This document shows, in pieces, positions 1-64,000 of a DNA stretch of 64,000 nucleotides. Positions within the stretch are counted from its first letter, which is position 1; every line of letters starts with the position of its first letter. A model generated the notes under the pieces. It ran no database searches and was not told the origin of the DNA. It worked only from the letters and a program-made list of their open reading frames with translations. The DNA lies in NCBI RefSeq assembly GCF_964213995.1, contig NC_135808.1, positions 43,338,001 to 43,402,000 of the forward strand, in the 5' to 3' direction. Position numbers and translations under genes: made by a program. This stretch comes from Mustelus asterias (Eukaryota).

Positions 1-3000
1 TCTCTCTCTCTCTGTGTCCCGCTCTCTCTCTCTCTGCCTGTGCACCGCTCTCTCTCTCGCTCTGTTTCCCCCGCTCTCTCTCTCTCTCTCTTGCCTGTGC
101 CCCGCTCTCTCTCTCTCTCTCTCTCTGTGTCCCGCTCTCTCTCTGTGTCCCGCTCTCTCTCTCTCTCTGTGTCCCGCTCTCTCTCTCTTTGTGTCCCGCT
201 CTCTCTCTCTCTGTGTCCCGCTCTCTCTCTCTCTGTGCCCCGCTCTCTCTCTCTCTCTGTGTCCCGCTCTCTCTCTCTCTGTGCCCCGCACTCTCTCTCT
301 CTGCCTGTGCCCCGCTCTCTCTCTGTGTCCCGCTCTCTCTCTCTGTGTCCCGCTCTCTCTCTCTCTGTGCCCCGCTCTCTCTCTCTCTGCCTGTGCCCCG
401 CTCTCTCTCTGTGTCCTGCTCTCTCTCTCTCTGTGTCCCGCTCTCTCTCTCTCTGTGTCCCGCTCTCTCTCTCTCTGTGTCCCGCTCTCTCTCTCTCTGT
501 GTCCCGCTCTCTCTCTCTCTGTGTCCCGCTCTCTCTCTCTCTGTGTCCCGCTCTCTCTCTCTGTGTCCCGCTCTCTCTCTCTCTGTGCCCCGCTCCCTCT
601 CTCTGTGCCCCGCTCTCTCTCTCTCTCTGTGCCCCGCTCTCTCTCTCTCTCTGTGCCCTGCTCTCTCTCTCTCTCTGTGCCCCGCTCTCTCTCTCTCTCT
701 GTGCCCCGCTCTCTCTCTCTCTCTGTGCCCCGCTCTCTCTCTCTCTCTGTGCCCCGCTCTCTCTCTCTCTCTCTGTGCCCCGCTCTCTCTCTCTCTGTGC
801 CTGTGCCCCGCTCTCTCTCTCTGTGCCCCGCTCTCTCTCTCTCTGTGTCCCGCTCTCTCACTCTCTGTGCCCTGCCTCTCTCTCTCTCTGTGCCCCGCTC
901 TCTCTCTCTCTCTGTGCCCTGCTCTCTCTCTCTCTCTGTGCCCCGCTCTCTCTCTCTCTCTGTGCCCTGCTCTCTCTCTCTCTCTCTGTGCCCCGCTCTC
1001 TCTCTCTCTCTGTGCCCCGCTCTCTCTCTCTCTCTGTGCCCCGCTCCCTCTCTCTCTCTCTGTGCCCCGCTCTCTCTCTCTCTCTGTGCCCCGCTCTCTC
1101 TCTCTCTCTCTGTGCCCCGCTCTCTCTCTCTGTGTCCCGCTCTCTCTCTCTCTGTGTCCCGCTCTCTCTCTCTCTGCCTGTGCCCCGCTCTCTCTCTCTC
1201 GCTCTGTGTCCCGCTCTCTCTCTCTCTGCCTGTGCCCCGCTCTCTCTCTCTCTCTCTCTCTGTGTCCCGCTCTCTCTCTCTCTCTGTGTCCCGCTCTCTC
1301 TCTCTCTCTGTGTCCCGCTCTCTCTCTCTCTCTGTGTCCCCGCTCTCTCTCTCTCTGTGTCCCGCTCTCTCTCTCTCTGTGTCCCGCTCTCTCTCTCTCT
1401 GTGCCCCGCTCTCTCTCTCTCTCTGTGTCCCGCTCTCTCTCTCTCTGTGCCCCGCACTCTCTCTCTCTGCCTGTGCCCCGCTCTCTCTCTGTGTCCCGCT
1501 CTCTCTCTCTGTGTCCCGCTCTCTCTCTCTCTGTGCCCCGCTCTCTCTCTCTCTGCCTGTGCCCCGCTCTCTCTCTGTGTCCCGCTCTCTCTCTCTCTGT
1601 GTCCCGCTCTCTCTCTCTCTGTGTCCCGCTCTCTCTCTCTCTGTGTCCCGCTCTCTCTCTCTCTGTGTCCCGCTCTCTCTCTCTCTCTGTGTCCCGCTCT
1701 CTCTCTCTCTGTGCCCCGCTCTCTCTCTCTGTGCCCCGCTCTCTCTCTCTCTCTGTGCCCCGCTCTCTCTCTCTCTCTGTGCCCCGCTCTCTCTCTCTCT
1801 CTGTGCCCCGCTCTCTCTCTCTGTGCCCCGCTCTCTCTCTCTCTCTGTGCCCCGCTCTCTCTCTCTCTGTGCCTGTGCCCCGCTCTCTCTCTCTCTCTGT
1901 GCCCCGCTCTCTCTCTCTCTGTGTCCCGCTCTCTCACTCTCTGTGCCCTGCTCCCTCTCTCTCTCTGTGCCCCGCTCTCTCTCTCTCTGTGCCCTGCTCT
2001 CTCTCTCTCTCTGTGCCCCACTCTCTCTCTCTCTCTGTGCCCCGCTCTCTCTCTCTCTCTGTGCCCCGCTCTCTCTCTCTCTCTGTGCCCCGCTCTCTCT
2101 CTCTCTCTGTGCCCTGCTCTCTCTCTCTCTCTGTGCCCCGCTCTCTCTCTCTCTGTACCCCGCTCTCTCTCTCTCTGTGTCCCGCTCTCTCACTCTCTGT
2201 GCCCCGCTCTCTCTCTCTCTCTCTGTGCCCCGCTCTCTCTCTCTCTCTGTGCCCCGCTCTCTCTCTCTCTGTGCCCCGCTCTCTCTCTCTCTGTGCCCCG
2301 CTCTCTCTCTCTCTCTCTGTGCCCCGCTCTCTCTCTCTCTCTCTGTGCCCCGCTCTCTCTCTCTCTCTCTGTGCCCCGCTCTCTCTCTCTCTCTCTGTGC
2401 CCCGCTCCCTCTCTCTCTCTCTGTGCCCCGCTCTCTCTCTCTCTCTCTGTGCCCCGCTCTCTCTCTCTCTGTGTCCCGCTCTCTCTCTCTCTGTGTCCCG
2501 CTCTCTCTCTCTGCCTGTCCCCCGCTCTCTCTCTCTCTCTCTCTGTGTCCCGCTCTCTCTCTCTCTGCCTGTGCCCCGCTCTCTCTCTCTCTCTGTGTCC
2601 CGCTCTCTCTCTCTCTCTGTGCCCCGCTCTCTCTCTCTCTGCCTGCGCCCCGCTCTCTCTCTGTGTCCCGCTCTCTCTCTCTGTGTCCCGCTCTCTCTCT
2701 CTCTGTGTCCCGCTCTCTCTCTCTCTGTGTCCCGCTCTCTCTCTCTCTGTGCCCCGCTCTCTCTCTCTCTGCCTGTGCCCCGCTCTCTCTCTCTCTCTGC
2801 CTGTGCCCCGCTCTCTCTGCCTGTGCCCCGCTCTCTCTGCCTGTGCCTCGCACTCTCTCTCTCTCTGTGTCCCGCTCTCTCTCTCTCTGTGCCCCGCTCT
2901 CTCTCTCTCTGTGCCCCGCTCTCTCTCTCTCTCTGCCTGTGCCCCGCTCTCTCTCTCTCTTTGCTGTGCCCCGCTCTCTCTCTCTCTCTCTGCCTGTGCC

Positions 3001-6000
3001 CCGCTCTCTCTCTCTCTGCCTGTTGCCCCGCTCTCTCTCTCTGCCTGTGCCCCGCTCTTTCTGCCTGTGCCCCGCTCTCTCTCTCTCTGCCTGTGCCCCG
3101 CTCTCTCTCTCTCTCTGCCTGTGCCCCGCTCTCTCTGCCTGTGCCCCACTCTCTCTGCCTGTGCCCCGCTGTCTCTGCCTGTGCCCCACTCTCTCTGCCT
3201 GTGCCCCGCTCTCTCTGCCTGTGTCCCGCTCTCTCTCTCTCTGCCCCGCTCTCTCTCTCTGTGTCCCGCTCTCTCTCTCTCTGTGCCCCGCTCTCTCTCT
3301 CTGTGCCCCGCTCTCTCTCTCTCTCTGTGCCCCGCTCTCTGTCTCTCTCTGTGCCCCGCTCTCTCTCTCTCTCTGTGCCCCGCTCTCTCTCTCTCTCTCT
3401 GTGCCCCGCTCTCTCTCTCTCTCTGTGCCTGTGCCCCGCTCTCTCTCTCTCTCTGTGCCCGCTCTCTCTCTCTCTCTGTGTCCCGCTCTCTCACTCTCTG
3501 TGCCCCGCTCTCTCTCTCTCTCTGTGCCCTGCTCTCTCTCTCTCTGTGCCCCGCTCTCTCTCTCTCTGTGCCCTGCTCTCTCTCTCTCTCTGTGCCCCGC
3601 TCTCTCTCTCTGTGCCCTGCTCTCTCTCTCTCTCTCTGTGCCCCGCTCTCTCTCTCTGTGCCCTGCTCTCTCTCTCTCTCTGTGCCCCGCTCTCTCTCTC
3701 TCTGTGTCCCGCTCTCTCACTCTCTGTGTCCCGCTCTCTCTCTCTCTCTGTGCCCCGCTCTCTCTCTCTCTCTGTGCCCCGCTCTCTCTCTCTCTCTGTG
3801 CCCTGCTCTCTCTCTCTCTCTCTGTGTCCCGCTCTCTCTCTCTCTCTGTGCCCCGCTCTCTCTCTCTCTCTGTGCCCCGCTCTCTCTCTCTCTGTGCCCC
3901 GCTCTCTCACTCTCTGTGCCCCGCTCTCTCTCTCTCTGTGCCCCGCTCTCTCTCTCTCTCTGTGCCCCGCTCTCTCTCTCTCTGTGCCCCGCTCTCTCTC
4001 TCTCTGTGCCCCGCTCTCTCTCTCTCTGTGCCCCGCTCTCTCTCTCTCTGTGCCCCGCTCTCTCTCTCTCTGTGCCCCGCTCTCTCTCTCTCTCTCTGTG
4101 CCCCGCTCTCTCTCTCTCTCTCTGTGCCCCGCTCTCTCTCTCTCTCTCTGTGCCCCGCTCTCTCTCTCTCTCTCTGTGCCCCGCTCTCTCTCTCTCTCTG
4201 TGCCCCGCTCTCTCTCTCTCTCTCTGTGCCCTGCTCTCTCTCTCTGTGTCCCGCTCTCTCTCTCTCTGTGTCCCGCTCTCTCTCTCTCTGCCTGTGCACC
4301 GCTCTCTCTCTCTCTCGCTCTGTTTCCCGCTCTCTCTCTCTCTGCCTGTGCCCCGCCTCTCTCTCTCTCTCTCTGTGTCCCGCTCTCTCTCTCTCTGTGT
4401 CCCGCTCTCTCTCTCTCTCTGTGTCCCGCTCTCTCTCTCTTTGTGTCCCGCTCTCTCTCTCTCTGTGTCCCGCTCTCTCTCTCTCTGTGCCCCGCTCTCT
4501 CTCTCTCTGTGTCCCGCTCTCTCTCTCTCTGTGCCCCGCACTCTCTCTCTCTGCCTGTGCCCCGCTCTCTCTCTGTGTCCCGCTCTCTCTCTCTGTGTCC
4601 CGCTCTCTCTCTCTCTGTGCCCCGCTCTCTCTCTCTCTGCCTGTGCCCCCGCTCTCTCTCTGTGTCCCGCTCTCTCTCTCTCTGTGTCCCGCTCTCTCTC
4701 TCTCTCTGTGTCCCGCTCTCTCTCTCTCTGTGTCCCGCTCTCTCTCTCTCTGTGTCCCGCTCTCTCTCTCTCTGTGTCCCGCTCTCTCTCTCTCTGTGTC
4801 CCGCTCTCTCTCTCTCTCTGTGTCCCGCTCTCTCTCTCTCTCTGTGCCCCGCTCTCTCTCTCTCTCTGTGCCCCGCTCTCTCTCTCTCTCTGTGCCCCGC
4901 TCTCTCTCTCTCTGTGCCTGTGCCCCGCTCTCTCTCTCTCTGCCCCGCTCTCTCTCTCTCTGTGTCCCGCTCTCTCACTCTCTGTGCCCCGCTCTCTCTC
5001 TCTCTGCCTGTGCCCCGCTCTCACTCTCTCTGCCTGTGCCCCGCTCTCTCTCACTCTGCCTGTGCCCCGCTCTCTCTCTCTGCCTGTGCCCCGCTCTCTC
5101 TCTCTCTCTCTGCCTGTGCCCCGCTCTCTCTCTCTCTGCCTGTGCCCCACTCTCTGTCTCTCTCTCTGTGCCCCGCTCTCACTCTCTCTGCCTGTGCCCC
5201 GCTCTCACTCTCTCTGCCTGTACCCCGCTCTCTCTCACTCTCTCTGCCTGTGCCCCGCTCTCTCTCTCTGCCTGTGCCCCGCTCTCTCTCTCTCTCTCTG
5301 TGCCCTGCTCTCTCTCTCTCTCTGTGCCCCGCTCTCACTCTCTCTGCCTGTGCCCCGCTCTCTCTCACTCTCTCTGCCTGTGCCCCGCTCTCTCTCTCTG
5401 CCTGTGCCCCGCTCTCTCTCTCTCTCTGCCTGTGCCCCGCTCTCTCTCTCTCTGCCTGTGCCCCACTCTCTGTCTCTCTCTGCCTGTGCCTCGCTCTCTC
5501 TCTCTCTCTCTGCCTGTGCCCCGCTCTCTCTCTCTGCCTGTGCCCCGCTCTCTCTCTCTCTCTCTGCCTGTGCCCCGCTCTCTCTCTCTGCCTGTGCCCC
5601 GCTCTCTCTCTCTCTCTCTGCCTGTGCCCCGCTCTCTCTCTCTGCCTGTGCCCCGCTCTCTCTCTCTCTCTCTGCCTGTGCCCCGCTCTCTCTCTCTCTC
5701 TCTGCCTGTGCCCCGCTCTCTCTGCCTGTGCCCCGCTCTCTCTCTCTCTCTCTGCATGTGCCCCGCTCTCTCTCTCTGTGTCCCGCTCTCTCTCTCTCTC
5801 TGCCTGTGCCCCGCTCTCTCTGCCTATGCCCCGCTCTCTCTCTCTCTCTGTGCCCCGCTCTCTCTCTGTGCCCCGCTCTCTCTCTCTCTCTGTGCCCCGC
5901 TCTCTCTCTCTGTGTCCCGCTCTCTCTCTCTCTCTCTGTGCCCCGCTCTCTCTCTCTCTGTGCCCCGCTCTCTCTCTCTGTGCCCCGCTCTCTCTCTCTC

Positions 6001-9000
6001 TCTGTGCCCCGCACTCTCTCTCTGCCTGTGCCCCGCTCTCTCTCTCTCTGCCTGTGCCCCGCTCTCTCTCTCTCTGCCTGTGCCCCGCTCTCTCTCTCTC
6101 TGCCTGTGCCACGCTCTCTCTCTCTCTCTGCCTGTGCCCCGCTCTCTCTGCCTGTGCCCCGCTCTCTCTGCCTGTGCCTCGCACTCTCTCTCTCTCTCTG
6201 TGTCCCGCTCTCTCTCTCTCTGTGCCCCGCTCTCTCTCTCTCTCTGTGCCCCGCTCTCTCTCTCGCTGTGCCCCGCTCTCTCTCTCTCTGTGCCCCGCTC
6301 TCTCTCTCTCTCTGCCTGTGCCCCGCTCTCTCTCTCTCTTTGCCTGTGCCCCGCTCTCTCTCTCTCTCTGCCTGTGCCCCGCTCTCTCTCTCTCTGCCTG
6401 TGCCCCGCTCTCTCTCTCTGCCTGTGCCCCGCTCTTTCTGCCTGTGCCCCGCTCTCTCTCTCTCTGCCTGTGCCCCGCTCTCTCTCTCTCTCTGCCTGTG
6501 CCCCGCTCTCTCTGCCTGTGCCCCACTCTCTCTGCCTGTGCCCCGCTGTCTCTGCCTGTGCCCCACTCTCTCTGCCTGTGCCCCGCTCTCTCTGCCTGTG
6601 TCCCGCTCTCTCTCTCTCTGCCCCGCTCTCTCTCTCTGTGTCCCGCTCTCTCTCTCTCTGTGCCCCGCTCTCTCTCTCTGTGCCCCGCTCTCTCTCTCTC
6701 TCTGTGCCCCGCTCTCTGTCTCTCTCTGTGCCCCGCTCTCTCTCTCTCTGTGCCCCGCTCTCTCTCTCTCTCTCTGTGCCCCGCTCTCTCTCTCTCTCTC
6801 TGTGCCTGTGCCCCGCTCTCTCTCTCTCTCTGTGCCCCGCTCTCTCTCTCTCTCTGTGCCCCGCTCTCTCTCTCTCTCTGTGTCCCGCTCTCTCACTCTC
6901 TGTGCCCCGCTCTTTCTCTCTCTCTGTGCCCTGCTCTCTCTCTCTCTGTGAACCGCTCTCTCTCTCTGTGCCCTGCTCTCTCTCTCTCTCTGTGCCCCGC
7001 TCTCTCTCTCTGTGCCCTGCTCTCTCTCTCTCTCTCTGTGCCCCGCTCTCTCTCTCTCTCTGTGCCCTGCTCTCTCTCTCTCTCTCTGTGCCCCGCTCTC
7101 TCCTCTCTGTGTCCCGCTCTCTCACTCTCTGTGTCCCGCTCTCTCTCTCTCTCTGTGCCCCGCTCTCTCTCTCTCTCTGTGCCCGCTCTCTCTCTCTCTC
7201 TGTGCCCTGCTCTCTCTCTCTCTCTGTGCCCCGCTCTCTCTCTCTCTCTCTGTGCCCCGCTCTCTCTCTCTCTGTGTCCCGCTCTCTCACTCTCTGTGCC
7301 CCGCTCTCTCTCTCTCTCTGTGCCCCGCTCTCTCTCTCTCTCTGTGCCCCGCTCTCTCTCTCTCTGTGCCCCGCTCTCTCTCTCTCTGTGCCCCGCTCTC
7401 TCTCTCTCTCTCTGTGCCCCGCTCTCTCTCTCTCTCTCTGTGCCCCGCTCTCTCTCTCTCTCTGTGCCCCGCTCTCTCTCTCTCTCTGTGCCCCGCTCTC
7501 TCTCTCTCTGTGCCCCGCTCTCTCTCTCTCTCTGTGCCCCGCTCTCTCTCTCTCTCTGTGCCCCGCTCTCTCTCTCTCTCTGTGCCCTGCTCTCTCTCTC
7601 TCTCTCTGTGTCCCGCTCTCTCTCTCTCTCTGTGCCCCGCTCTCTCTCTCTCTCTGTGCCCCGCTCTCTCTCTCTCTCTGTGCCCCGCTCTCTCACTCTC
7701 TGTGCCCCGCTCTCTCTCTCTCTCTGTGCCCCGCTCTCTCTCTCTCTCTGTGCCCCGCTCTCTCTCTCTCTGTGCCCCGCTCTCTCTCTCTCTGTGCCCC
7801 GCTCTCTCTCTCTCTGTGCCCCGCTCTCTCTCTCTCTGTGCCCCGCTCTCTCTCTCTCTCTCTGTGCCCCGCTCTCTCTCTCTCTCTCTGTGCCCCGCTC
7901 TCTCTCTCTCTCTCTGTGCCCCGCTCTCTCTCTCTCTCTCTGTGCCCCGCTCTCTCTCTCTCTCTGTGCCCCGCTCTCTCTCTCTCTCTCTGTGCCCCGC
8001 TCTCTCTCTCTGTGTCCCGCTCTCTCTCTCTCTGTGTCCCGCTCTCTCTCTCTCTGCCTGTGCACCGCTCTCTCTCTCGCTCTGTTTCCCGCTCTCTCTC
8101 TCTCTCTCTGCCTGTGCCCCGCTCTCTCTCTCTCTCTCTCTCTGTGTCCCGCTCTCTCTCTCTCTCTGTGTCCCGCTCTCTCTCTCTTTGTGTCCCGCTC
8201 TCTCTCTCTCTGTGTCCCGCTCTCTCTCTCTCTGTGCCCCGCTCTCTCTCTCTCTCTGTGTCCCGCTCTCTCTCTCTCTGTGCCCCGCACTCTCTCTCTC
8301 TGCCTGTGCCCCGCTCTCTCTCTGTGTCCCGCTCTCTCTCTCTGTGTCCCGCTCTCTCTCTCTCTGTGCCCCGCTCTCTCTCTCTCTGCCTGTGCCCCGC
8401 TCTCTCTCTGTGTCCTGCTCTCTCTCTCTCTGTGTCCCGCTCTCTCTCTCTCTGTGTCCCGCTCTCTCTCTCTCTGTGTCCCGCTCTCTCTCTCTCTGTG
8501 TCCCGCTCTCTCTCTCTCTGTGTCCCGCTCTCTCTCTCTCTGTGTCCCGCTCTCTCTCTCTGTGTCCCGCTCTCTCTCTCTCTGTGCCCCGCTCCCTCTC
8601 TCTGTGCCCCGCTCTCTCTCTCTCTCTGTGCCCCGCTCTCTCTCTCTCTCTGTGCCCTGCTCTCTCTCTCTCTCTGTGCCCCGCTCTCTCTCTCTCTCTG
8701 TGCCCCGCTCTCTCTCTCTCTCTGTGCCCCGCTCTCTCTCTCTCTCTGTGCCCCGCTCTCTCTCTCTCTCTCTGTGCCCCGCTCTCTCTCTCTCTGTGCC
8801 TGTGCCCCGCTCTCTCTCTCTGTGCCCCGCTCTCTCTCTCTCTGTGTCCCGCTCTCTCACTCTCTGTGCCCTGCTCTCTCTCTCTCTCTGTGCCCCGCTC
8901 TCTCTCTCTCTCTGTGCCCTGCTCTCTCTCTCTCTCTGTGCCCCGCTCTCTCTCTCTCTCTGTGCCCTGCTCTCTCTCTCTCTCTCTGTGCCCCGCTCTC

Positions 9001-11380
9001 TCTCTCTCTCTGTGCCCCGCTCTCTCTCTCTCTCTGTGCCCCGCTCCCTCTCTCTCTCTCTGTGCCCCGCTCTCTCTCTCTCTCTGTGCCCCGCTCTCTC
9101 TCTCTCTCTCTGTGCCCCGCTCTCTCTCTCTGTGTCCCGCTCTCTCTCTCTCTGTGTCCCGCTCTCTCTCTCTCTGCCTGTGCCCCGCTCTCTCTCTCTC
9201 TCGCTCTGTGTCCCGCTCTCTCTCTCTCTGCCTGTGCCCCGCTCTCTCTCTCTCTCTCTCTCTGTGTCCCGCTCTCTCTCTCTCTCTCTCTGTGTCCCGC
9301 TCTCTCTCTCTCTCTGTGTCCCGCTCTCTCTCTCTCTCTGTGTCCCGCTCTCTCTCTCTCTGTGTCCCGCTCTCTCTCTCTCTGTGTCCCGCTCTCTCTC
9401 TCTCTGTGCCCCGCTCTCTCTCTCTCTCTGTGTCCCGCTCTCTCTCTCTCTGTGCCCCGCACTCTCTCTCTCTGCCTGTGCCCCGCTCTCTCTCTGTGTC
9501 CCGCTCTCTCTCTCTGTGTCCCGCTCTCTCTCTCTCTGTGCCCCGCTCTCTCTCTCTCTGCCTGTGCCCCGCTCTCTCTCTGTGTCCCGCTCTCTCTCTC
9601 TCTGTGTCCCGCTCTCTCTCTCTCTGTGTCCCGCTCTCTCTCTCTCTGTGTCCCGCTCTCTCTCTCTCTGTGTCCCGCTCTCTCTCTCTCTGTGTCCCGC
9701 TCTCTCTCTCTCTCTGTGTCCCGCTCTCTCTCTCTCTGTGCCCCGCTCTCTCTCTCTCTGTGCCCCGCTCTCTCTCTCTCTCTGTGCCCCGCTCTCTCTC
9801 TCTCTCTGTGCCCCGCTCTCTCTCTCTGTGCCCCGCTCTCTCTCTCTCTCTGTGCCCCGCTCTCTCTCTCTCTGTGCCTGTGCCCCGCTCTCTCTCTCTC
9901 TCTGTGCCCCGCTCTCTCTCTCTCTCTCTGTGCCCCGCTCTCTCCCTCTCTGTGTCCCGCTCTCTCACTCTCTGTGTCCCGCTCTCTCTCTCTCTCTGTG
10001 CCCCGCTCTCTCTCTCTCTCTGTGCCCCGCTCTCTCTCTCTCTCTGTGCCCTGCTCTCTCTCTCTCTCTGTGCCCCGCTCTCTCTCTCTCTCTCTGTGCC
10101 CCGCTCTCTCTCTCTCTGTGTCCCGCTCTCTCACTCTCTGTGCCCCGCTCTCTCTCTCTCTCTCTGTGCCCCGCTCTCTCTCTCTCTCTGTGCCCCGCTC
10201 TCTCTCTCTCTGTGCCCCGCTCTCTCTCTCTCTGTGCCCCGCTCTCTCTCTCTCTCTCTGTGCCCCGCTCTCTCTCTCTCTCTCTGTGCCCCGCTCTCTC
10301 TCTCTCTCCTTGCCCCGCTCTCTCTCTCTCTCTGTGCCCCGCTCTCTCTCTCTCTGTGCCCCGCTCTCTCTCTCTCTCTGTGCCCCGCTCTCTCTCTCTC
10401 TCTGTGCCCCGCTCTCTCTCTCTCTCTGTGCCCTGCTCTCTCTCTCTCTCTCTGTGTCCCGCTCTCTCTCTCTCTCTGTGCCCCGCTCTCTCTCTCTCTC
10501 TGTGCCCCGCTCTCTCTCTCTCTCTGTGCCCCGCTCTCTCACTCTCTGTGCCCCGCTCTCTCTCTCTCTCTGTGCCCCGCTCTCTCTCTCTCTCTGTGCC
10601 CCGCTCTCTCTCTCTCTGTGCCCCGCTCTCTCTCTCTCTGTGCCCCGCTCTCTCTCTCTCTGTGCCCCGCTCTCTCTCTCTCTGTGCCCCGCTCTCTCTC
10701 TCTCTGTGCCCCGCTCTCTCTCTCTCTCTCTGTGCCCCGCTCTCTCTCTCTCTCTCTGTGCCCGCCTCTCTCTCTCTCTCTGTGCCCCGCTCTCTCTCTC
10801 TCTCTCTGTGCCCCGCTCTCTCTCTCTCTCTGTGCCCCGCTCTCTCTCTCTCTCTCTGTGCCCCGCTCTCTCTCTCTGTGTCCCGCTCTCTCTCTCTCTG
10901 TGTCCCGCTCTCTCTCTCTCTGCCTGTGCACCGCTCTCTCTCTCGCTCTGTTTCCCGCTCTCTCTCTCTCTCTCTGCCTGTGCCCCGCTCTCTCTCTCTC
11001 TCTCTCTCTGTGTCCCGCTCTCTCTCTCTCCTCTGTGTCCCGCTCTCTCTCTCTCTCTGTGTCCCGCTCTCTCTCTCTCTGTGTCCCGCCTCTCTTTCCC
11101 GCTCTCTCTCTCTCTGTGTCCCGCTCTCTCTCTCTCTGTGCCCCGCTCTCTCTCTCTCTCTGTGTCCCGCTCTCTCTCTCTCTGTGCCCCGCACTCTCTC
11201 TCTCTGCCTGTGCCCCGCTCTCTCTCTGTGTCCCGCTCTCTCTCTCTGTGTCCCGCTCTCTCTCTCTCTGTGCCCCGCTCTCTCTCTCTCTGCCTGTGCC
11301 CCGCTCTCTCTCTGTGTCCCGCTCTCTCTCTCTCTGTGTCCCGCTCTCTCTCTCTCTGTGTCCCGCTCTCTCTCTCTGTG
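1..11380. repeat. CT-rich compound satellite, unit (CT)n-GTG[C/T]CCCG of about 20-30 bp with GCCT-insertion variants and kb-scale higher-order blocks
   Basis: Read directly. The + strand is almost devoid of A, so it has almost no stop codons. The rare marker TGCACC recurs at 41, 4295, 8061 and 10927. Confidence 0.97.
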
Positions 11381-11580
11381 NNNNNNNNNNNNNNNNNNNN
11401 NNNNNNNNNNNNNNNNNNNNNNNNNNNNNNNNNNNNNNNNNNNNNNNNNNNNNNNNNNNNNNNNNNNNNNNNNNNNNNNNNNNNNNNNNNNNNNNNNNNN
11501 NNNNNNNNNNNNNNNNNNNNNNNNNNNNNNNNNNNNNNNNNNNNNNNNNNNNNNNNNNNNNNNNNNNNNNNNNNNNNNNN
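11381..11580. other. Assembly gap (200 N)
   Basis: Run of exactly 200 N; the true size and the join are unknown. Confidence 1.
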
Positions 11581-35570: not shown

Positions 35571-35635
35571 CCAATGAGAATTAAGAGCCGGTGTGAATCA
35601 TCTGTTGCCGGGCAGAGTCTGAGAATTCAGGTTGC
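35571..35635 (-). promoter_or_regulatory. Canonical MHC S-X1-X2-Y module
   Basis: Minus strand reads GCAACCT-N16-CCCGGCAACAGATG (X2 TGATTCA)-N20-CTCATTGG. Confidence 0.8.
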
Positions 35636-55432: not shown

Positions 55433-57827
55433 CATAAGCTTTTTGCAATTAGCCAATACTGGGTGATAACCAATGTGTCTGTGTAAAGTTGGTCTGGGAA
55501 CCACTAAGTCATAATGCTCATTTGGAGAGCTGGTGTACACGAGATGGGCCAGAATGACTTCCATTTGTGCGATTACTATTCTGTGATACTGTGCTCTTGC
55601 ATGAATCTTTCAGCCCTCACCCTTTACTCTTTCCCCTTGTCCAAAGTCTCTTTTCCTTCCTCAAGGGGAGAGGATGGTAGGAGCGCAAGAGTCCATTGGG
55701 AAAGCGGAGACAATGTGGGCTGGGGACCCATCTCCTTTCTGTCTCTCAATGCCTGAATCTGTCTCTCTGATTCTCCTCTCTCTCCCTTCTCAACCTTCCC
55801 TCTGATGCCTCTTTCTCACTCTCTCTCTATCCCTGTTTGTCTTCTTGGTTTTATCTCTCTGTTGCTCTCTGTCTCTGCCTCACTCTCTGTCTCACTCTCT
55901 TTTCCATCTATCTATCTTTAGCTGTTTGATCTCTTGCTTGGAAAATTGACCTATTTTCATTTTAAATGTTAACTTCTAATTTCCCCTGTGAAGATCCCTT
56001 CTAATTCCCAGCCCAATGAATAGCCTTCCCTGTATAACCGCGACCATCAATAGTTCCATCTGCAACTCTCGGCCAGTGCAGAGCTTCCTGTCTAATCATC
56101 TTCAGAAACCCCACAGTAACAGATTAAAGATTTTCTACTGCTGAATGGGAATCAGAGTCATTCTCCCTGTGTCTTCGTGGGTTTCCTCCAGGTGCTCTGG
56201 TTTCCTCCCACAGTCCCAAGATGTGTAGGTTAGGTGGATTAGCTATGCGTGGGGTTACATGGTGGCACAGTAGTTAGCACTGCTGCCTCACAGCGCCAGG
56301 AACTGAGTTTGATTCCTGGCTTGGGTCATTGTCTGTACAGGTACACTGAGGGAGAGTTTAGCTTGGCCATTTCACCTAACCAGCATGTCTTTGGACTGTG
56401 GAAGGAAACCTGGAGCAAACCCATACATACACAGGAAGAGTGTTTCAAGTGCTCACCTTAATGCTTCATAAATGTTGTGAGGGTCCCAGCGTCTACCACC
56501 CTTTCAGGCAAAGAGTTTCAGATTCCCACCACCCTGTGGCTGAAAAAGCTTATCCTCAAATCCCCCGAAGACTCTTGCCCCCTTTCCTTAAATCTATGCC
56601 CCCTGGTTATGGACCCCTCTACTGTGGAGAAATATCTCTTCCCAGTTACCGTATCTATGTCCATCAATTTTGTACACCCTCAACCTTCTCTGCTCCAAGG
56701 AAAACAATCCCAAATTCTTTACTGGTCTATCTCTCTCTATCTTTTTGTGTGTTGCTCATTCATTATATTTGCTTCACATCAACAATCTTTCTCTCTCTTA
56801 ACACCCGCTCTCTATTTCTGCATCTGTCTGCCCTTCTGTCTCTGCTACTCTCTCTCAGGTCTGTTCTTCTCTGTGCTCTGTGTTTTTATCCATCTGTGTT
56901 CACACTGCTTATAAATTGAGACAACAGAAGTCATTAAAGTGAACTAAAGCATCTCCACACCATACTGTGTCATTGACCCTGGAAGGAGCAGGGCAAAGCT
57001 TGGGGACTTCACCCCGAAGAGCTGGACCCAGTCACTAGGCCCTATCTTCGCTGTGGAATCTTGGAAATGCTTGCTTCAAAGGATGTGTGGAAAGGCTCTA
57101 TGAGCTGCAGTCTTGGTGCCCTGTGGCTGGCTCTCTGTTAAGCCGTGGGAAAGCATAGAGTTGGGAGCACTCTCTGGGTGATAACTCAAGCACAGAAGAA
57201 CCCTGGTTGTGCTGCCAGGGGATGTGACAGAGACCAAGGGTAGCGATTGATACTTAGACCAGCTCACGCAGAATGCTAACACCCAGAAATGGCCCAATTT
57301 TGGCCTACTTATAATCACAGAATTGTTGTGGTGCAGAATTAGACCATTCGGCCCATCGTGTCTACACCAGCTTTCCAAACAAGCATCATGACTTAGTGCT
57401 ATTCCCCTGCCTTTTCCCTGTACCCCTGCACATCGATTATATCACATGCCTTCTTGAATGTCTTGATTGAACCTGCCTCCACCTCATTTCCAGGCAGAAC
57501 ATTCCAGATCCGAACCACTCGCTGTGTGAAAAAGTCAATGGAAGTGAGTTCTCGATCGAGTTCAGCGCACACGTTGACCTGTGAACAGGCATGATGGGCA
57601 TCGATGTTAGCAAGGAACACAATGAATTGTTAACTGTGCTGCTAATAAACAATGTCGGACTCAAATTGGAAGATCCTAGTGTTGGAAAGGAGATCCCTCA
57701 CCCCTCCACTTCCTTCGTTACTCGCAGACCCCTCTCTCTGTTCCTAATGTCCCTTCATTCTGTCATGTTCCTGATCAAACTACTTCTAGTTTCTTCTTTA
57801 TTTCTCAAATCCGGCACAGTTTATTCT

Positions 57828-58810
57828 TGCCGACGACATGAAGGTTGGTGGTGTTGTGGATAGTTTGGAGGGATGTCAGAAGCTGCAGAGTGACATAGAT
57901 AGGATGCAAGACTGGGCGGAGAAGTGGCAGATGGACTTCAACCTGGATAAATGTGTAGTGGTCCATTTTGGCAGGTCAAATGGGATGAAGGAGTATAACA
58001 TCAAGGGTAAGACTCTTAGAGGATCAGAAGGACCTTGGGGTCCGGGTCCATAGGACTCTTAAATCGGCCTCGCAGGTAGAGGAAGTGGTTAAGAAGGCGT
58101 ATGGTGTGCTGGCCTTCATCAATCGAGGGATTGAGTTTAGGTGTTGGGAGATAATGATGCAGCTTTATAAGACTCTCGTCAGACCCCACTTGGAGTTAAG
58201 AGTCCTATGGACCCGGTCCCCAAGGTCCTTCTGATCCTCTACACTGCTAAGAGTCTTATCCTTGATATTATACTCCTTCATCCCATTTGACCTGCCAAAA
58301 TGGACCACTACACATTTATCCAGGTTGAAGTCCATCTGCCACTTCTCCACCCAGTCTTGCATCCTATCTATGTCACGCTGCAGCTTCTGACATCCCTCCA
58401 ACCTATCCACAACGGAGAGACGAAGGATGAGAGGTGACCTGAGAGAGGTGTACAAGACGTTGGGAGGTATAGATCGGGTGGATTCTTGGAGGCTTTTTCC
58501 CAGGGCTGAAATGGCTGCTACAAGAGGACACAGGTTTAAGGTGCTGGGGAGTAGGTACAGAGGAGATGTCAGGGGTAAGTTTTTCACTCAGAGGGTGGTG
58601 GGTGAGTGGAATCGGCTGCCGTCAGTGGTGGTGGAGGCAAACTCGATAGGGTCTTTTAAGAGACTTCTGGATGAATACATGGGACTTGATAGGATTGAGG
58701 GTTATAGGTAAGCCTATATATAAGCATAGGTAGGTAGGGACATGACCGGCGCAACTTGTGGGCCGAAGGGCCTGTTTGTGCTGTATTTTTTCTATTTTCG
58801 ATGTTCTATA
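57828..58810 (+). mobile_element. CR1 3' part with an internal inverted duplication (58196-58413)
   Basis: FADD region through to the 3' tail; same family as 50364-53030. Confidence 0.88.
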
Positions 58811-58811
58811 A

Positions 58812-60422
58812 TATTAATGGTAGGACTCTTGGCAGAGTGGAAGATCAGAAGGATCTTGGGGTCCGAGTTCATAGGACGCTCAAAGCAGCTGTGCAGGTTA
58901 CATAGAACATAGAACAGTACAGCACAGAACAGGCCCTTCGGCCCACGATGTTGTGCCGACCTTCATCTGAAACCAAGATCAAGCTATCCCACTCCCTACC
59001 ATCCTGGTGTGCTCCATGTGCCTATCCAATAACCGCTTAAATGTTCCTAAAGTGTCTGACTCCACTATCACTGCAGGCAGTCCATTCCACACCCCAACCA
59101 CTCTCTGCGTGAAGAACCTACCTCTGATATCCTTCCTATATCTCCCACCATGAACCCTATAGTTATGCCCCCTTGTAATAGCTCCATCCACCCGAGGAAA
59201 TAGTCTTTGAACGTTCACTCGATCTATCCCCTTCATCATTTTATAAACCTCTATTAAGTCTCCCCTCAATCTCCTCCGCTCCAGAGAGAACAGCCCCAGC
59301 TCCCTCAACCTTTCCTCATAAGACCGACACTCCAAACCAGGCAGCATCCTGGTAAATCTCCTCTGCACTCTTTCCAGCGCTTCCACATCCTTCCTATAGT
59401 GAGGTGACCAGAACTGCACGCAATATTCCAAATGCGGTCTCACCAAGGTCCTGTACAGTTGCAGCATAACCCCACGGCTCTTAAACTCCAACCCCCTGTT
59501 AATAAAAGCTAACACACTATATGCCTTCTTCACAGCTCTATCCACTTGAGTGGCAACCTTTAGAGATCTGTGGATATGGACCCCAAGATCTCTCTGTTCC
59601 TCCACAGTCTTCAGAACCCTACCTTTGACCCTGTAATCCACATTTAAATTTGTCCTACCAAAATGAATCACCTCACATTTATCAGGGTTAAACTCCATTT
59701 GCCATTTTTCAGCCCAGCTTTGCATCCTATCTATGTCTCTTTGCAGCCTACAACACTGTTGTTCTTCTGTGGTTGTGAGGCTGTGGTTAAGAAGGCGAAT
59801 GGTGTACTGGCCTTCATCAATCGAGGAATTGAGTTTAGGAGTCGTGAGATAATGTTGCAGCTATATAAGACCCTGGTCAGACCACACTTGGAGTACTGTG
59901 CTCAGTTCTGGTCGCCTCATTACAGGAAGGATGTGGAAGCCATAGAAAGGGTGCAGAGGAGATTTACAAGGATGTTGCCTGGGTTAGGGAGCATACCTTA
60001 TGAGGATAGGTTGAGTGAGCTCGGCCTTTTCTCCTTGGAGAGACGAAGGATGAGGGGTGACCTGATAGAGGTGTATAAGATGTTGAGAGGTATTGATCGA
60101 GTGGATAGTCAGAGGCTTTTTCCCAGGGCTGAAATGGTTGCCACAAGAGGACACAGGTTTAAGGTGCTGGAGAGTAGGTACAGAGGAGATGTCAGGAGTA
60201 AGTTTTTCACTCAGAGGGTGGTGGGTGCGTGGAATGGGCTGCCAGCAATGGTAGTGGAGGCGGATTCGATAGGGTCTTTTAAGAGACTTTTAGATAAGTA
60301 CATGGAACTTAGTAAGATAGAGGGTTATAGGTAAGCCTAGTAATCGCTAAGGTAGGGACGTGTTCGGAACAACTTTGTGGGCTGAAGGACCTGTATTGTG
60401 CTGTAGTGTTTCTATGTTTCTA
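58812..60422 (+). mobile_element. CR1 3' part in two pieces (58812-58898 and ~59770-60422)
   Basis: GRTLGRVEDQKDLGV... resumes as AVVKKANGVLAFIN...; tail TTTCTATGTTTCTA. Confidence 0.88.
58899..59756 (-). mobile_element. CR1 3' copy of the young family at 22571-27089, nested
   Basis: 248-aa ORF nearly identical to the ORF2 C-terminus of that element. Confidence 0.95.
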
Positions 60423-60756
60423 ACTCCCATGACTTGCCAGGGCTTGCAAAATCTCACTAACTGTCCTGTCTGGAGACAATACACATCTCTTTAACCTGTA
60501 CTTAACCCTCTCTCCACTCACATTGTCTGTACCTTTAAGACTTGATTACCTGTAAAGACTCACATTCCAACCATTGTTTTGTAAATTGAGTTTTTGTCTT
60601 TATAGGCCCTGTTTGTGAACACACCCACTTACCTGACGAAGGAGCAGCGCTCTGAAAGCTAGTGGGTTTGCTACCGAATAAACGTGTTGGACTTTAACCT
60701 GGTGTTGAGACTTCTTACTGTGTTTACCCCAGTCCAACGCCGGCATCGCCACATCA
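60421..60756 (+). mobile_element. Solo Penelope pLTR with 3' tail
   Basis: CTGTCTGGAGACAATACACATCT...hammerhead...AATAAA...CCCCAGTCCAACGCCGGCATCGCCACATCA. Confidence 0.88.
60630..60664 (+). ncRNA. Minimal type-I hammerhead, intact core
   Basis: TAC CTGACGA A GGAGC AGC GCTCT GAAA GCT A GTG. Confidence 0.8.
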
Positions 60757-60767
60757 GAGATGTTCTA

Positions 60768-60809
60768 CCCAGAGACTGCTGAGTCACAGGCTCCTTGTAT
60801 TCTCATTGG
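60768..60809 (+). promoter_or_regulatory. MHC-type X1-X2-Y promoter module
   Basis: CCCAGAGACTGCTG (X2 TGAGTCA)-N20-CTCATTGG, with ATTGG 89 nt upstream of the ATG. Confidence 0.7.
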
Positions 60810-60893
60810 ACATTCCTTTGCCATTGAAGGAATCAGCAGCATGAGCGCTGGGTACAGAGAGTGACTGGAGTGTGAACAAGGAAGTGAAGGAAG

Positions 60894-60939
60894 ATGAGGT
60901 TAATTCTGCTGGCGACTCTGTGGGGAGGCCTCTCTGAAG
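60894..60939 (+). CDS. Candidate exon 1 (signal peptide MRLILLATLWGGLSE-G) of an MHC or MHC-like gene; the rest lies beyond the window
   Basis: AAGATGA start context, basic-then-hydrophobic leader, phase-1 donor AAG|GTGAGC, and an XY module upstream. Confidence 0.6.
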
Positions 60940-61074
60940 GTGAGCTGTTTTCTGGGTCACAGAGCTGGCAGTCTCAGCAGTGACCCCAGGAGAGGTGGTC
61001 ACTGGGAGGAACACAGTAAGAAGTTTAACAACACCAGGTTAAAGTCCAACAGGTTTATTTGGTAGCAAAAGCCA

Positions 61075-61111
61075 CACAAGCTTTCGAGGCTCTGAGCCCC
61101 TTCTTCAGGTG
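61075..61111 (-). ncRNA. Minimal type-I hammerhead in the pLTR, intact core
   Basis: CAC CTGAAGA A GGGGCT CAG AGCCTC GAAA GCT T GTG. Confidence 0.87.
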
Positions 61112-61393
61112 AGTGGGAATTCTGTTCACAAACAGAACTTATAAGACACAGACTCAATTTACATGAATAATGGTTGGAATGCGAATACTTACAACTAATC
61201 CAGTCTTTAAGAAACAAAACAATGGGAGTGGAGAGAGCATCAAGACAGGCTAAAAAGATGTGTATTGTCTCCAGACAAGACAGCCAGTGAAACTCTGCAG
61301 GTCCACGCAACTGTGGGAGTTACAAATAGTGTGACATAAATTCTGATTCTAGGATCGCATGATAAAGACTCAGGAGGAAAAAAGCAGAAATAT

Positions 61394-63320
61394 TTATGTG
61401 AAATAGTGTGACATAAACCCAATATCCCGGTTGAGGCCGTCCTTGTGTGTGCGGAACTTGGCTATCAGTTTCTGCTCCGCGACTCTGCGCTGTCGTGTGT
61501 CGCGAAGGCCGCCTTGGAGAACGCTTACCCGAATATCAGAGGCCGAATGCCCGTGACCGCTGAAGTGCTCCCCAACAGGAAGAGAACAGTCTTGCCTGGT
61601 GATTGTCGAGCGGTGTTCATTCATCCGTTGTCGCAGCGTCTGCATAGTTTCCCCAATGTACCATGCCTCGGGACATCCTTTCTTGCAGCGTATCAGGTAG
61701 ACAACGTTGGCCGAGTTGCAAGAGTATGTACCGTGTACCTGGTGGATGGTGTTCTCACGTGAGATGATGGCATCTGTGTCGATGATCCGGCACGTCTTGC
61801 AGAGGTTGCTGTGGCAGGGTTGTGTGGTGTCTTGGTCACTGTTCTCCTGAAGGCTGGGTAGTTTGCTGCGGACAATGGTCTGTTTGAGGTTGTGCGGTTG
61901 TTTGAAGGCAAGAAGTGGGGGTGTGGGGATGGCCTTGGCGAGATGTTCGTCTTCATCAATGACATGTTGAAGGCTCCGGAGGAGATGCCGTAGCTTCTCC
62001 GCTCCGGGGAAGTACTGGACAACGAAGGGTACTCTGTCCACTGTGTCCCGTGTTTGTCTTCTGAGGAGGTCGGTGCGGTTTTTCGCTGTGGCGCGTTGGA
62101 ACTGTTGATCAATGAGTCTAGCGCCATATCCTGTTCTTATGAGGGCATCTTTCAGCGTCTGGAGGTGTCTGTTGCGATCCTCCTCATCCGAGCAGATCCT
62201 GTGTATACGGAGGGCTTGTCCGTAGGGGATGGCTTCTTTAACGTGTTTAGGGTGGAAGCTGGAGAAGTGGAGCATCGTGAGGTTATCCGTGGGCTTGCGG
62301 TACAGTGAGGTGCTGAGGTGACCGTCCTTAATGGAGATGCGCGTGTCCAAGAATGCAACCGATTCCGGAGAGTAGTCTATGGTGAGCCTGATGGTGGGAT
62401 GGAACTTGTTGATGTCATCATAGAGTTGTTTCAGTGATTGTTCACCATGAGTCCAAAGGAAGAAAATGTCATCGATGTATCTAGTGTATAGCACCGGTTG
62501 AAGGTCCCGTGCGGTGAAGAAGTCTTGTTCGAACCTGTGCATGAAGATGTTGGCATATTGAGGTGCAAATTTGGTCCCCATGGCTGTTCCGTGTGTCTGG
62601 ATGAAGAACTGGTTGTTGAAGGTGAAGATATTGTGGTCCAGGATGAAGCGGATGAGATGTAAAATTGCATCTGGAAACTGGCAGTTGTTGGCGCTGAGCA
62701 CTGAGGCCGTTGCAGCAATGCCATCGTCATGGGGGATGCTGGTGTAGAGTGCTGAGACATCCATTGTGACGAGGAGCGCTCCTGGTTCAACTGCTCCATG
62801 TGTGCCGAGTTTCTGTAGGAAGTCCGTCGTGTCGCGACAAAAGCTGGGGGTTCTTTGTACAATGGGTTTCAGGATGCCCTCGACATAGCCGGAGAGGTTC
62901 TCGCACAGGGTCCCATTGCCCGATACGATGGGACGGCCGGGTGTGTTTGCCTTGTGTATCTTCGGGAGGCAGTAGAGATCTCCAACGCGGGGAGTACGTG
63001 GGATGAGAGCACGGAGGGTGTTCTGAAGGTCCGGATCAAAGGTCTTGATCAGAGTGTTGAGTTGACGGGTGTGTTCTTTGGTCGGATCTGCAGGTAACTG
63101 TCTGTAGTGTTCCTCGTTGTTGAGTTGTCGGTACACTTCTTTGCAGTAATCCGTTCTGTTCAGTATGACGATGGCCCCTCCTTTGTCTGCTGGTTTGATG
63201 ACAATGTTGCGGTTGGTCTTGAGAGCGTGGATGGCGTTACGTTGTGCTTGGGTGATGTTCGGGGCTGTCTTGTGAGTGCGGCTGATGAATTTGGTCTTGT
63301 GAGTGCGGCTGATGAATTTG
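61394..63320 (-). CDS. PLE reverse transcriptase plus GIY-YIG endonuclease (N-terminally truncated)
   Basis: KPADKGG, LPKIHK, GRPIVS, MDVSALYTSIP, GTAMG, RYIDD; Cys linker PCHSNLCKTC; VVYLIRCKKGC...WYIGET, RMNEH, VGEHF. Confidence 0.95.
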
Positions 63321-64000
63321 GACCCCATCAGTCTCGCAGCAGACACAGAGGAATTCATCAGGCGAATGAGGCTGAGGGAGTTCTTCCACAAACCCCAAGA
63401 GGCCAACAACGAACACAATGAGACAGCCAATGAACTGGAACAGCCGACAGAGAGATCCGCAGTGCATCCGAAGAGGAAAGAGTCGAATTGGACTCCTCCG
63501 GAAGGCCGCTGCCCTCGACTTGACATGTATGCCCAAGCCGTCAGGAGGTGCGTCAACACCAAATTCATCAGCCGCACTCACAAGACAGCCCCGAACATCA
63601 CCCAAGCACAACGTAACGCCATCCACGCTCTCAAGACCAACCGCAACATTGTCATCAAACCAGCAGACAAAGGAGGGGCCATCGTCATACTGAACAGAAC
63701 GGATTACTGCAAAGAAGTGTACCGACAACTCAACAACGAGGAACACTACAGACAGTTACCTGCAGATCCGACCAAAGAACACACCCGTCAACTCAACACT
63801 CTGATCAAGACCTTTGATCCGGACCTTCAGAACACCCTCCGTGCTCTCATCCCACGTACTCCCCGCGTTGGAGATCTCTACTGCCTCCCGAAGATACACA
63901 AGGCAAACACACCCGGCCGTCCCATCGTATCGGGCAATGGGACCCTGTGCGAGAACCTCTCCGGCTATGTCGAGGGCATCCTGAAACCCATTGTACAAAG
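63321..64000 (+). mobile_element. Second Penelope copy, head-to-head, open frame running off the window end
   Basis: DPISLAADTEEFIRRMRLREFF...SNWTPPEGR...KPADKGG...LPKIHK; 63558-64000 is the reverse complement of 62853-63295. Confidence 0.95.

Follow-up and report, generated by a model that had tools for sequence, protein, structure and literature searches.

A probable class Ia-like MHC pseudogene of likely mosaic ancestry behind a transposon-split promoter in the shark Mustelus asterias

The start of an MHC class I gene lies near the end of a 64,000-nt stretch of Mustelus asterias DNA, referred to here as the window (C8:43338001-43402000; a window position is the C8 position minus 43338000). 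A sequence-only reading had taken an X-Y promoter with a leader exon for the 5' end of an MHC or MHC-like gene hidden among transposable elements, and from this start a seven-exon class I gene in the shark MHC was resolved. By its sequence, the gene is class Ia-like and not a class II, W-category, UDA or UBA gene. It is probably a dead copy, being broken in both versions seen. It is likely a mosaic with a UAA-type promoter and leader, an alpha1 domain of a rare type called WYRY here, and an alpha3 domain and tail of the type known from spiny dogfish and 'UAA-2'.

The promoter, the leader exon and the transposon stack

The promoter lies in an island (60760-61005) that had been described as unique and that indeed gave a single match in the 3.68-Gb genome. 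Its X1 box, CCCAGAGACTGCTG (60768..60781, +), shares 12 of 14 nt with the proximal X box of the Mustelus class I gene at 41.59 Mb, which is flanked by PSMB8 and PSMB9 and has its promoter at C8:41.60 Mb. The motif TGAGTCA (60780..60786, +) overlaps the final 2 nt of X1 and is presumably the X2 box, a CRE/AP-1-like site. Exactly 20 nt past X1 follows the Y box CTCATTGG, an inverted CCAAT (60802..60809, +). The leader exon (60894..60939, +; exon 1 of 7, 46 bp, phase 1) reads MRLILLATLWGGLSE and has its ATG at 60894 and a donor GT at 60940. X1, X2, Y, the 20-nt spacing, the ATG and the phase-1 donor were all borne out at the positions named by the sequence-only reading; the residue across the leader junction is Ala (G+CC) and not Gly. 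Past the Y box and ahead of the leader ATG, there is a short out-of-frame ORF of 7 codons (window 60841-60864).

Aligned without gaps, the promoter is the same as the proximal promoter of the 41.60-Mb gene at 58 of 74 nt, and the leader is of the UAA type. An X+Y matrix trained on three modules from outside the window gave the module a score of 23.3, and none of 40 Markov controls, each of 64 kb, exceeded 21.6; this test is not independent of the 58/74-nt alignment because one of the training modules is that homologous promoter. The XY module at 60768 is not a chance match. The X-Y boxes were identical across three samples where covered, and the spacing of 20 nt agrees with the 20-22 nt given for SXY modules in the relevant part of PMC4374748.

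SXY control, which had been assumed for the gene, was found only in part, as X and Y are present at 20 nt and the S box is gone. At the S position, 16 nt above X, the module at 60768 reads TCGCCA, which belongs to a repeat tail; in the other modules, [CT]AAC[CT]T stands exactly 16 nt above X in six out of six. The place is filled by a 2.9-kb repeat stack (57828..60757), made up of LINE-like pieces lying in either orientation plus a repeat tail of high copy number, which splits the promoter and ends 10 bp above the X1 box. Local repeats cover 99.7% of the stack, and its tail has very many genomic copies. The LINE label of the fragments and the transposon family names are assumptions of ours; no Pfam family was found for the two stack ORFs tested. 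A displaced remnant of the upstream promoter, comprising the distal S-box region and spacer (57774..57827, +), abuts the start of the stack exactly. Against the 56-nt segment that precedes the distal X box in the 41.60-Mb gene, 40 of 54 nt of this remnant are the same, and the alignment score of 52 was reached by none of 150 shuffles (maximum 42). For the distal X-Y of the 41.60-Mb promoter, and likewise for its proximal S box, no equivalent was found at this gene. Contigs of runs X1 and X2 span from 60729-60730 within the repeat through the island with no variant or alternative junction; those of runs X3 and X4 begin at 60752, short of the S position. The S box has been replaced by the 2.9-kb transposon stack. 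In the ancestor, a UAA-type SXY promoter would have been driven by an RFX/CREB/NF-Y enhanceosome. NLRC5 transactivation in mouse requires the S box (PMC4374748), and by this analogy its loss would weaken NLRC5-type activation if the mouse result can be transferred to sharks.

Three such modules in about 50 kb had been counted and an MHC-type cluster suggested, but the count was not reproduced. Consensus scans and the matrix gave two XY modules in the window, at 60768 (+) and 35612 (-), and a second class I gene with exons was not found in the window or in the 200 kb downstream. The module on the minus strand is a complete inverted S-X-Y (35571..35634; S CAACCT, 16 nt, X, 20 nt, Y), 25 kb upstream of the leader promoter. 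A copy with 93% identity is located at C8:42410637 (+), and S-X-Y is followed by a site that we take to be NF-kB-like. A leader exon was not found for this module; it may be a putative distal enhancer. Two further XY modules lie 10.4 kb before the window start, beyond an assembly gap, and at the 41.60-Mb gene a tandem pair of SXY modules is present. Above the leader of the 27.98-Mb class I gene (C8:27982500-27982950, -), two X-Y-like modules that the strict scan missed appear to be present, as judged by eye.

The downstream exons and the broken alpha2 exon

The phase-1 alpha1, alpha2 and C1 exons that had been expected past position 64000 are present 6.5-26 kb downstream, together with a TM exon and two cytoplasmic exons. 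A genome search with Pfam MHC_I gave matches 6.5 and 12 kb downstream, and the exons were resolved on 200 kb of downstream DNA; all 140 MHC_I matches lay on C8 (150 of 156 candidates scored). Intron 1 (60940..64000 in the window, +; 6.5 kb overall) contains retroelement copies with reverse transcriptase (RVT_1), and one RVT_1 frame of 727 aa occupies 61394-63577 (-). The intron is followed on the plus strand by the intact WYRY-type alpha1 exon (C8:43405465-43405725, 261 bp, PF00129), the alpha2 exon, which is out of frame (C8:43411131-43411399, 269 bp, PF00129), and the intact alpha3 exon of dogfish/'UAA-2' type (C8:43411723-43411995, 273 bp, C1-set). The TM exon (C8:43423964-43424089, +, 126 bp), a cytoplasmic exon (C8:43424475-43424510, +, 36 bp) and the last exon (C8:43424843-43424916, +, 74 bp to the stop) complete the gene. 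AG/GT ends and phase 1 were found in all seven exons, save the 269-bp alpha2, and intron 2 measures 5.4 kb.

The best PDB match of alpha1 was 6LUP, a nurse shark class I chain (E 6.8e-19). Further class I marks are TNQS at the alpha1 end, with the glycosylation site N86, and the cysteine pairs YGC...GTC in alpha2 and LSC...YSC in alpha3. Of eight conserved peptide-terminus residues, six were identical (Y7, R84, K146, W147, Y159 and Y171), and F59 and S143 were conservative; F59 is common to four of the five other WYRY proteins. The numbering of N86, the cysteines and the anchor residues is the one we presume to apply. No protein of this gene was among the matches listed in the database searches.

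The alpha2 exon has 269 bp compared to 273 bp in all five paralogues measured, and 276 bp would be expected because most relatives lack one of its codons. In the assembly, the reading of the gene stops after 120 codons, and the contig of run X2 matches the assembly at the lesion. The contig of run X1, from the same sample, has 7 bases more at this site and no other letter changed. This 276-bp version reads YGCEL followed by an in-frame TGA where paralogues have an arginine codon, and stops after 115 codons; it was seen in one contig with a depth of 6.5. As the 7-mer is a tandem repeat, the simplest history would be a nonsense change and then slippage, in this presumed order. The lesion was read from the assembly and one sample, the X3 and X4 contigs of this gene not covering the site. 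Contig depth over alpha2-alpha3 was 6.5-7.8 in run X1 and 4.2-4.3 in run X2, compared to 24.4 and 16 at the promoter; at about one third of the promoter depth, a further haplotype could be hidden. The alpha2 branch is long (0.89 vs a median of 0.28). Contigs of runs X1 and X2, the kind of which is unrecorded, cross intron 3 unspliced. A joint at 9381-9700 in the run contigs was rejected as a splice and appears to come from a paralogue contig.

No open frame runs through the TM exon, so that the gene does not count as a functional class I gene, and it is likely a dead copy because both versions seen are broken. The X and Y boxes are well kept. No damage was seen in alpha1, alpha3, the TM exon, the cytoplasmic exons or any splice site; thus, the loss is probably recent and intact alleles may exist. 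Any transcript would run into a stop within exon 3 of 7, 115-120 codons from the start; it would likely be subject to NMD and could not give a membrane-anchored molecule. Since lesions occur in the assembly of the 41.59-Mb and 35.07-Mb genes as well, some lesions in this region may be assembly errors or null alleles.

A live locus, that is, a functional class Ia-like or non-classical gene of low expression of which only null alleles happened to be present in the animals sequenced, would suit the six of seven intact exons with all splice sites, the six of eight anchor residues together with the shared F59, and the unchanged X-Y in the three samples; nevertheless, it is unlikely given two different alpha2 versions that are both null, a long alpha2 branch, and an S box that was replaced with no alternative junction seen in runs X1 and X2. 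It is highly improbable that the promoter and leader are orphans unrelated to the downstream exons, or that they start a class II or W-category gene. A splice that joins the donor at 60940 with alpha1 is predicted and not observed, which leaves some room for this. However, the phase, the signal-peptide junction SEA|SHW and the 6.5-kb intron match the 41.59-Mb gene (6.9 kb), neither a gap nor another leader or XY module was found between leader and alpha1, and three ectodomain exons stand in one gene. The gene is most probably a recently dead class Ia-like copy.

Lineage and mosaic ancestry

Exons whose best match is PSMB8 lie at 41.505 Mb on C8, and those for PSMB9 at 41.680 Mb. They flank a class I gene at 41.59 Mb, which was therefore taken as the classical UAA locus. 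In the assembly, this gene (C8:41.594 Mb) has a frameshift in alpha1 and is named 'LOW QUALITY PROTEIN' by NCBI. A second pair of proteasome-subunit exons at C8:41.28-41.34 Mb, 220-340 kb from the PSMB8/PSMB9 pair, suggests a duplicated PSMB block. The present gene at 43.40 Mb lies 1.8 Mb from the 41.59-Mb gene and is not in tight linkage to PSMB8/PSMB9.

Of the lineage that had been proposed, the MHC class I gene was retained, while a non-classical lineage of its own, on the lines of UDA or UBA, was given up for the class Ia-like mosaic suggested by the trees. Class II and W-category genes were ruled out by three class I ectodomain exons in one gene; these categories have two ectodomains per chain and an alpha-beta gene pair according to the sections of PMC10751288 on them. 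UDA was rejected as the 32.28-Mb gene, which was matched by eye to nurse shark UDA in the supplement, is far in the alpha1 and alpha3 trees. The same applies to UBA, as no clade was formed with the multicopy cluster at 21-24 Mb (UBA label by eye) in alpha1, alpha2 or alpha3. Three local divergent genes were 30-32% identical in alpha1 (tblastn); UCA/UEA, UFA and UGA were compared by eye, outside the trees.

Along the gene, the affinities change. The promoter and leader are of the UAA type. The alpha1 domain falls in the six-member WYRY clade (support 100/100, 52 rows) with two horn shark and two bamboo shark proteins and the Mustelus 42.40-Mb gene; one of the bamboo shark proteins was deposited as 'MHC class IA'. 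Over the first 55 alpha1 residues, 39-51 are the same in WYRY relatives compared to 22-27 in ten ordinary alpha1 domains. A region search (6 candidates) gave no WYRY proteins beyond these five, and among 114 representatives of 50% clusters, within which relatives are hidden, only P0001 exceeded 60%. In the other WYRY proteins (without P0001, which has no alpha3), alpha2 plus alpha3 matches the ordinary genes of their own genus at 83-93%, compared to 61-67% between these proteins across orders.

Alpha3 and the tail of the present gene are of the type found in spiny dogfish Q8HWH7, sevengill, sawshark and the 'UAA-2' gene (grouping support 100), 'UAA-2' being the nurse shark name in PMC10751288 supplement file 10 that was matched by eye. 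With the Mustelus 35.07-Mb 'UAA-2' gene, it shares 80% in alpha3 and approx. 70% DNA identity over alpha2-alpha3 and intron 4. The 'UAA-2' lineage thus agrees in the alpha3/TM type and not in the alpha1 type, which forms a separate 98/100 clade. AU tests on 24 rows rejected the WYRY group for alpha3 (p-AU 1.5e-06) and, for alpha1, the dogfish/UAA-2 group (p-AU 7.4e-06); these groups had been named after the first trees, and the tree alignments comprise 55-88 columns. The alpha3 trees were built in a quick run with 37 rows and a further run with 24 rows. The alpha2 tree does not place the gene. The 35.07-Mb gene itself (C8:35.072 Mb) has an in-frame stop early in the TM exon and could be a soluble form or a pseudogene. 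An SXY module was not found above its leader, and a zinc-finger array lies 17 kb upstream of it (motif scan).

At the neighbouring gene at 42.40 Mb, the first 165 nt of the alpha1 exon show 4 differences to the present gene (three codons, all non-synonymous). From approx. nt 190 of the alpha1 exon, the 42.40-Mb gene is 90-98% identical to the 41.59-Mb gene over approx. 11 kb. These identities suggest that a recent exchange with the C8:42.40-Mb gene, in either direction, likely affected the first 165 nt of alpha1.

The annotated protein of the 42.40-Mb gene is without a leader. From a UAA-type double-SXY promoter with an intact leader (C8:43327605-43327960, +), the sequence passes into a TC-rich satellite and then a gap, and the leaderless 42.40-Mb class I gene (-) is preceded by a TC-rich repeat up to another gap. 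The satellite covers approx. 15 kb from near C8:43334300, including window 1-11380, and likely belongs to intron 1 of the 42.40-Mb class I gene. The gaps are at window 11381-11580 (C8:43349381-43349580) and C8:42407976-42408175, and the 941-kb contig between them is probably scaffolded backwards. Flipping it would join the leader module with the 42.40-Mb gene, so that an annotated class I gene was left leaderless by a probable inversion; the UAA-type double module 10.4 kb before the window is probably what serves this gene as promoter and leader.

The likely source of the mosaic is either a recombination event within the 5.4-kb intron 2 or gene conversion at the level of exons. Tentatively, and at somewhat less than even chances, we propose that the WYRY alpha1 floor lineage predates the divergence of horn, carpet and ground sharks and was repeatedly grafted onto the classical backbone of each species, with side copies as the reservoir; this gene or an allele of it would have given the first 55 alpha1 codons to the 42.40-Mb UAA duplicate very recently. 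A different history, quite possible though less likely than not, would do without a chimera: the gene would be an old duplicate of the classical gene with the ancestral dogfish-type alpha3, and the WYRY alpha1 would have arisen here and from there been copied onto the UAA backbones typical of horn shark, bamboo shark and Mustelus. Such an origin is compatible with the present pseudogene status. The spiny dogfish, sawshark and sevengill proteins, in which an ordinary alpha1 is combined with the same alpha3 type, speak for it, as does the closeness of alpha2 plus alpha3 of the other WYRY genes to genes of their own genus (83-93%, compared to 61-67% across orders). However, WYRY alpha1 on a dogfish-type alpha3 was not found in any other species searched, and the approx. 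70% identity over alpha2-intron 3-alpha3 and intron 4 is shared with the 35.07-Mb gene, whose alpha1 and promoter differ.

Comparison with known class I systems

MHC-Ia-like genes of elasmobranchs, situated close to class Ia, were described by Verissimo et al. 2023 (PMC10751288, in part of the text), and the catshark gene LOC119976123 is located approx. 1 Mb from the catshark Ia gene in a portion of the supplement of the same paper. The present gene resembles them as an extra copy related to class Ia, 1.8 Mb from the PSMB8/PSMB9-flanked gene. It differs from them in being broken and in that a motif scan of the 314 kb around it gave no C2H2 zinc-finger array. A descendant of a class Ia gene, it adds one probable pseudogene to the already known shark class Ia-like side copies.

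With shark classical UAA (Triakis scyllium, nurse shark 6LUP and the 41.59-Mb gene), the gene shares the promoter (58/74 nt), the leader, the exon plan and most anchors. It differs from them in an alpha1 that is 44-50% identical, an alpha3 of another clade, F59 and S143, the missing S box, a place not between PSMB8 and PSMB9 and the lack of an open frame. A WYRY alpha1 is shared with Heterodontus francisci O19481 and XP_067865034, Chiloscyllium plagiosum G3CLE7 'MHC class IA' and Mustelus XP_078074031, but their alpha2, alpha3 and tail are the ordinary UAA type of their own species. Nurse shark 'UAA-2' and spiny dogfish Q8HWH7 have the same alpha3 type (67% to Q8HWH7) and TM and cytoplasmic exons, whereas alpha1 of 'UAA-2' belongs to another clade (40%).

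In the teleost U-lineage (trout UBA), old alpha1 types are shuffled onto different downstream domains, and the types are allelic, as stated in part of the review PMC6523485. According to its section 4.2, neither non-classical nor pseudogene copies serve as a reservoir of old alpha1 types in the fish investigated, and allelic variation in sharks is called mammal-like. A description of the WYRY alpha1 type or of shuffling in sharks was not found in the literature searched; Almeida 2020/2021, Ohta 2002, Bartl 1997 and the bamboo-shark class Ia paper may discuss it. As in teleosts, an old alpha1 is recombined onto different downstream domains and intron 2 is large. Unlike in teleosts, the old alpha1 sits here in side copies, and one exchange point is inside the alpha1 exon.

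The pattern exposed by this comparison is an alpha1 type that is kept across three shark orders with the rest of the molecule being each species' own version. It is likely a sign of teleost-like alpha1 shuffling in sharks, probably by swaps between genes. If side copies do feed old alpha1 floors to the classical gene, modular shuffling reaches back to early jawed vertebrates, and such a side-copy reservoir is directly testable in existing shark genomes.
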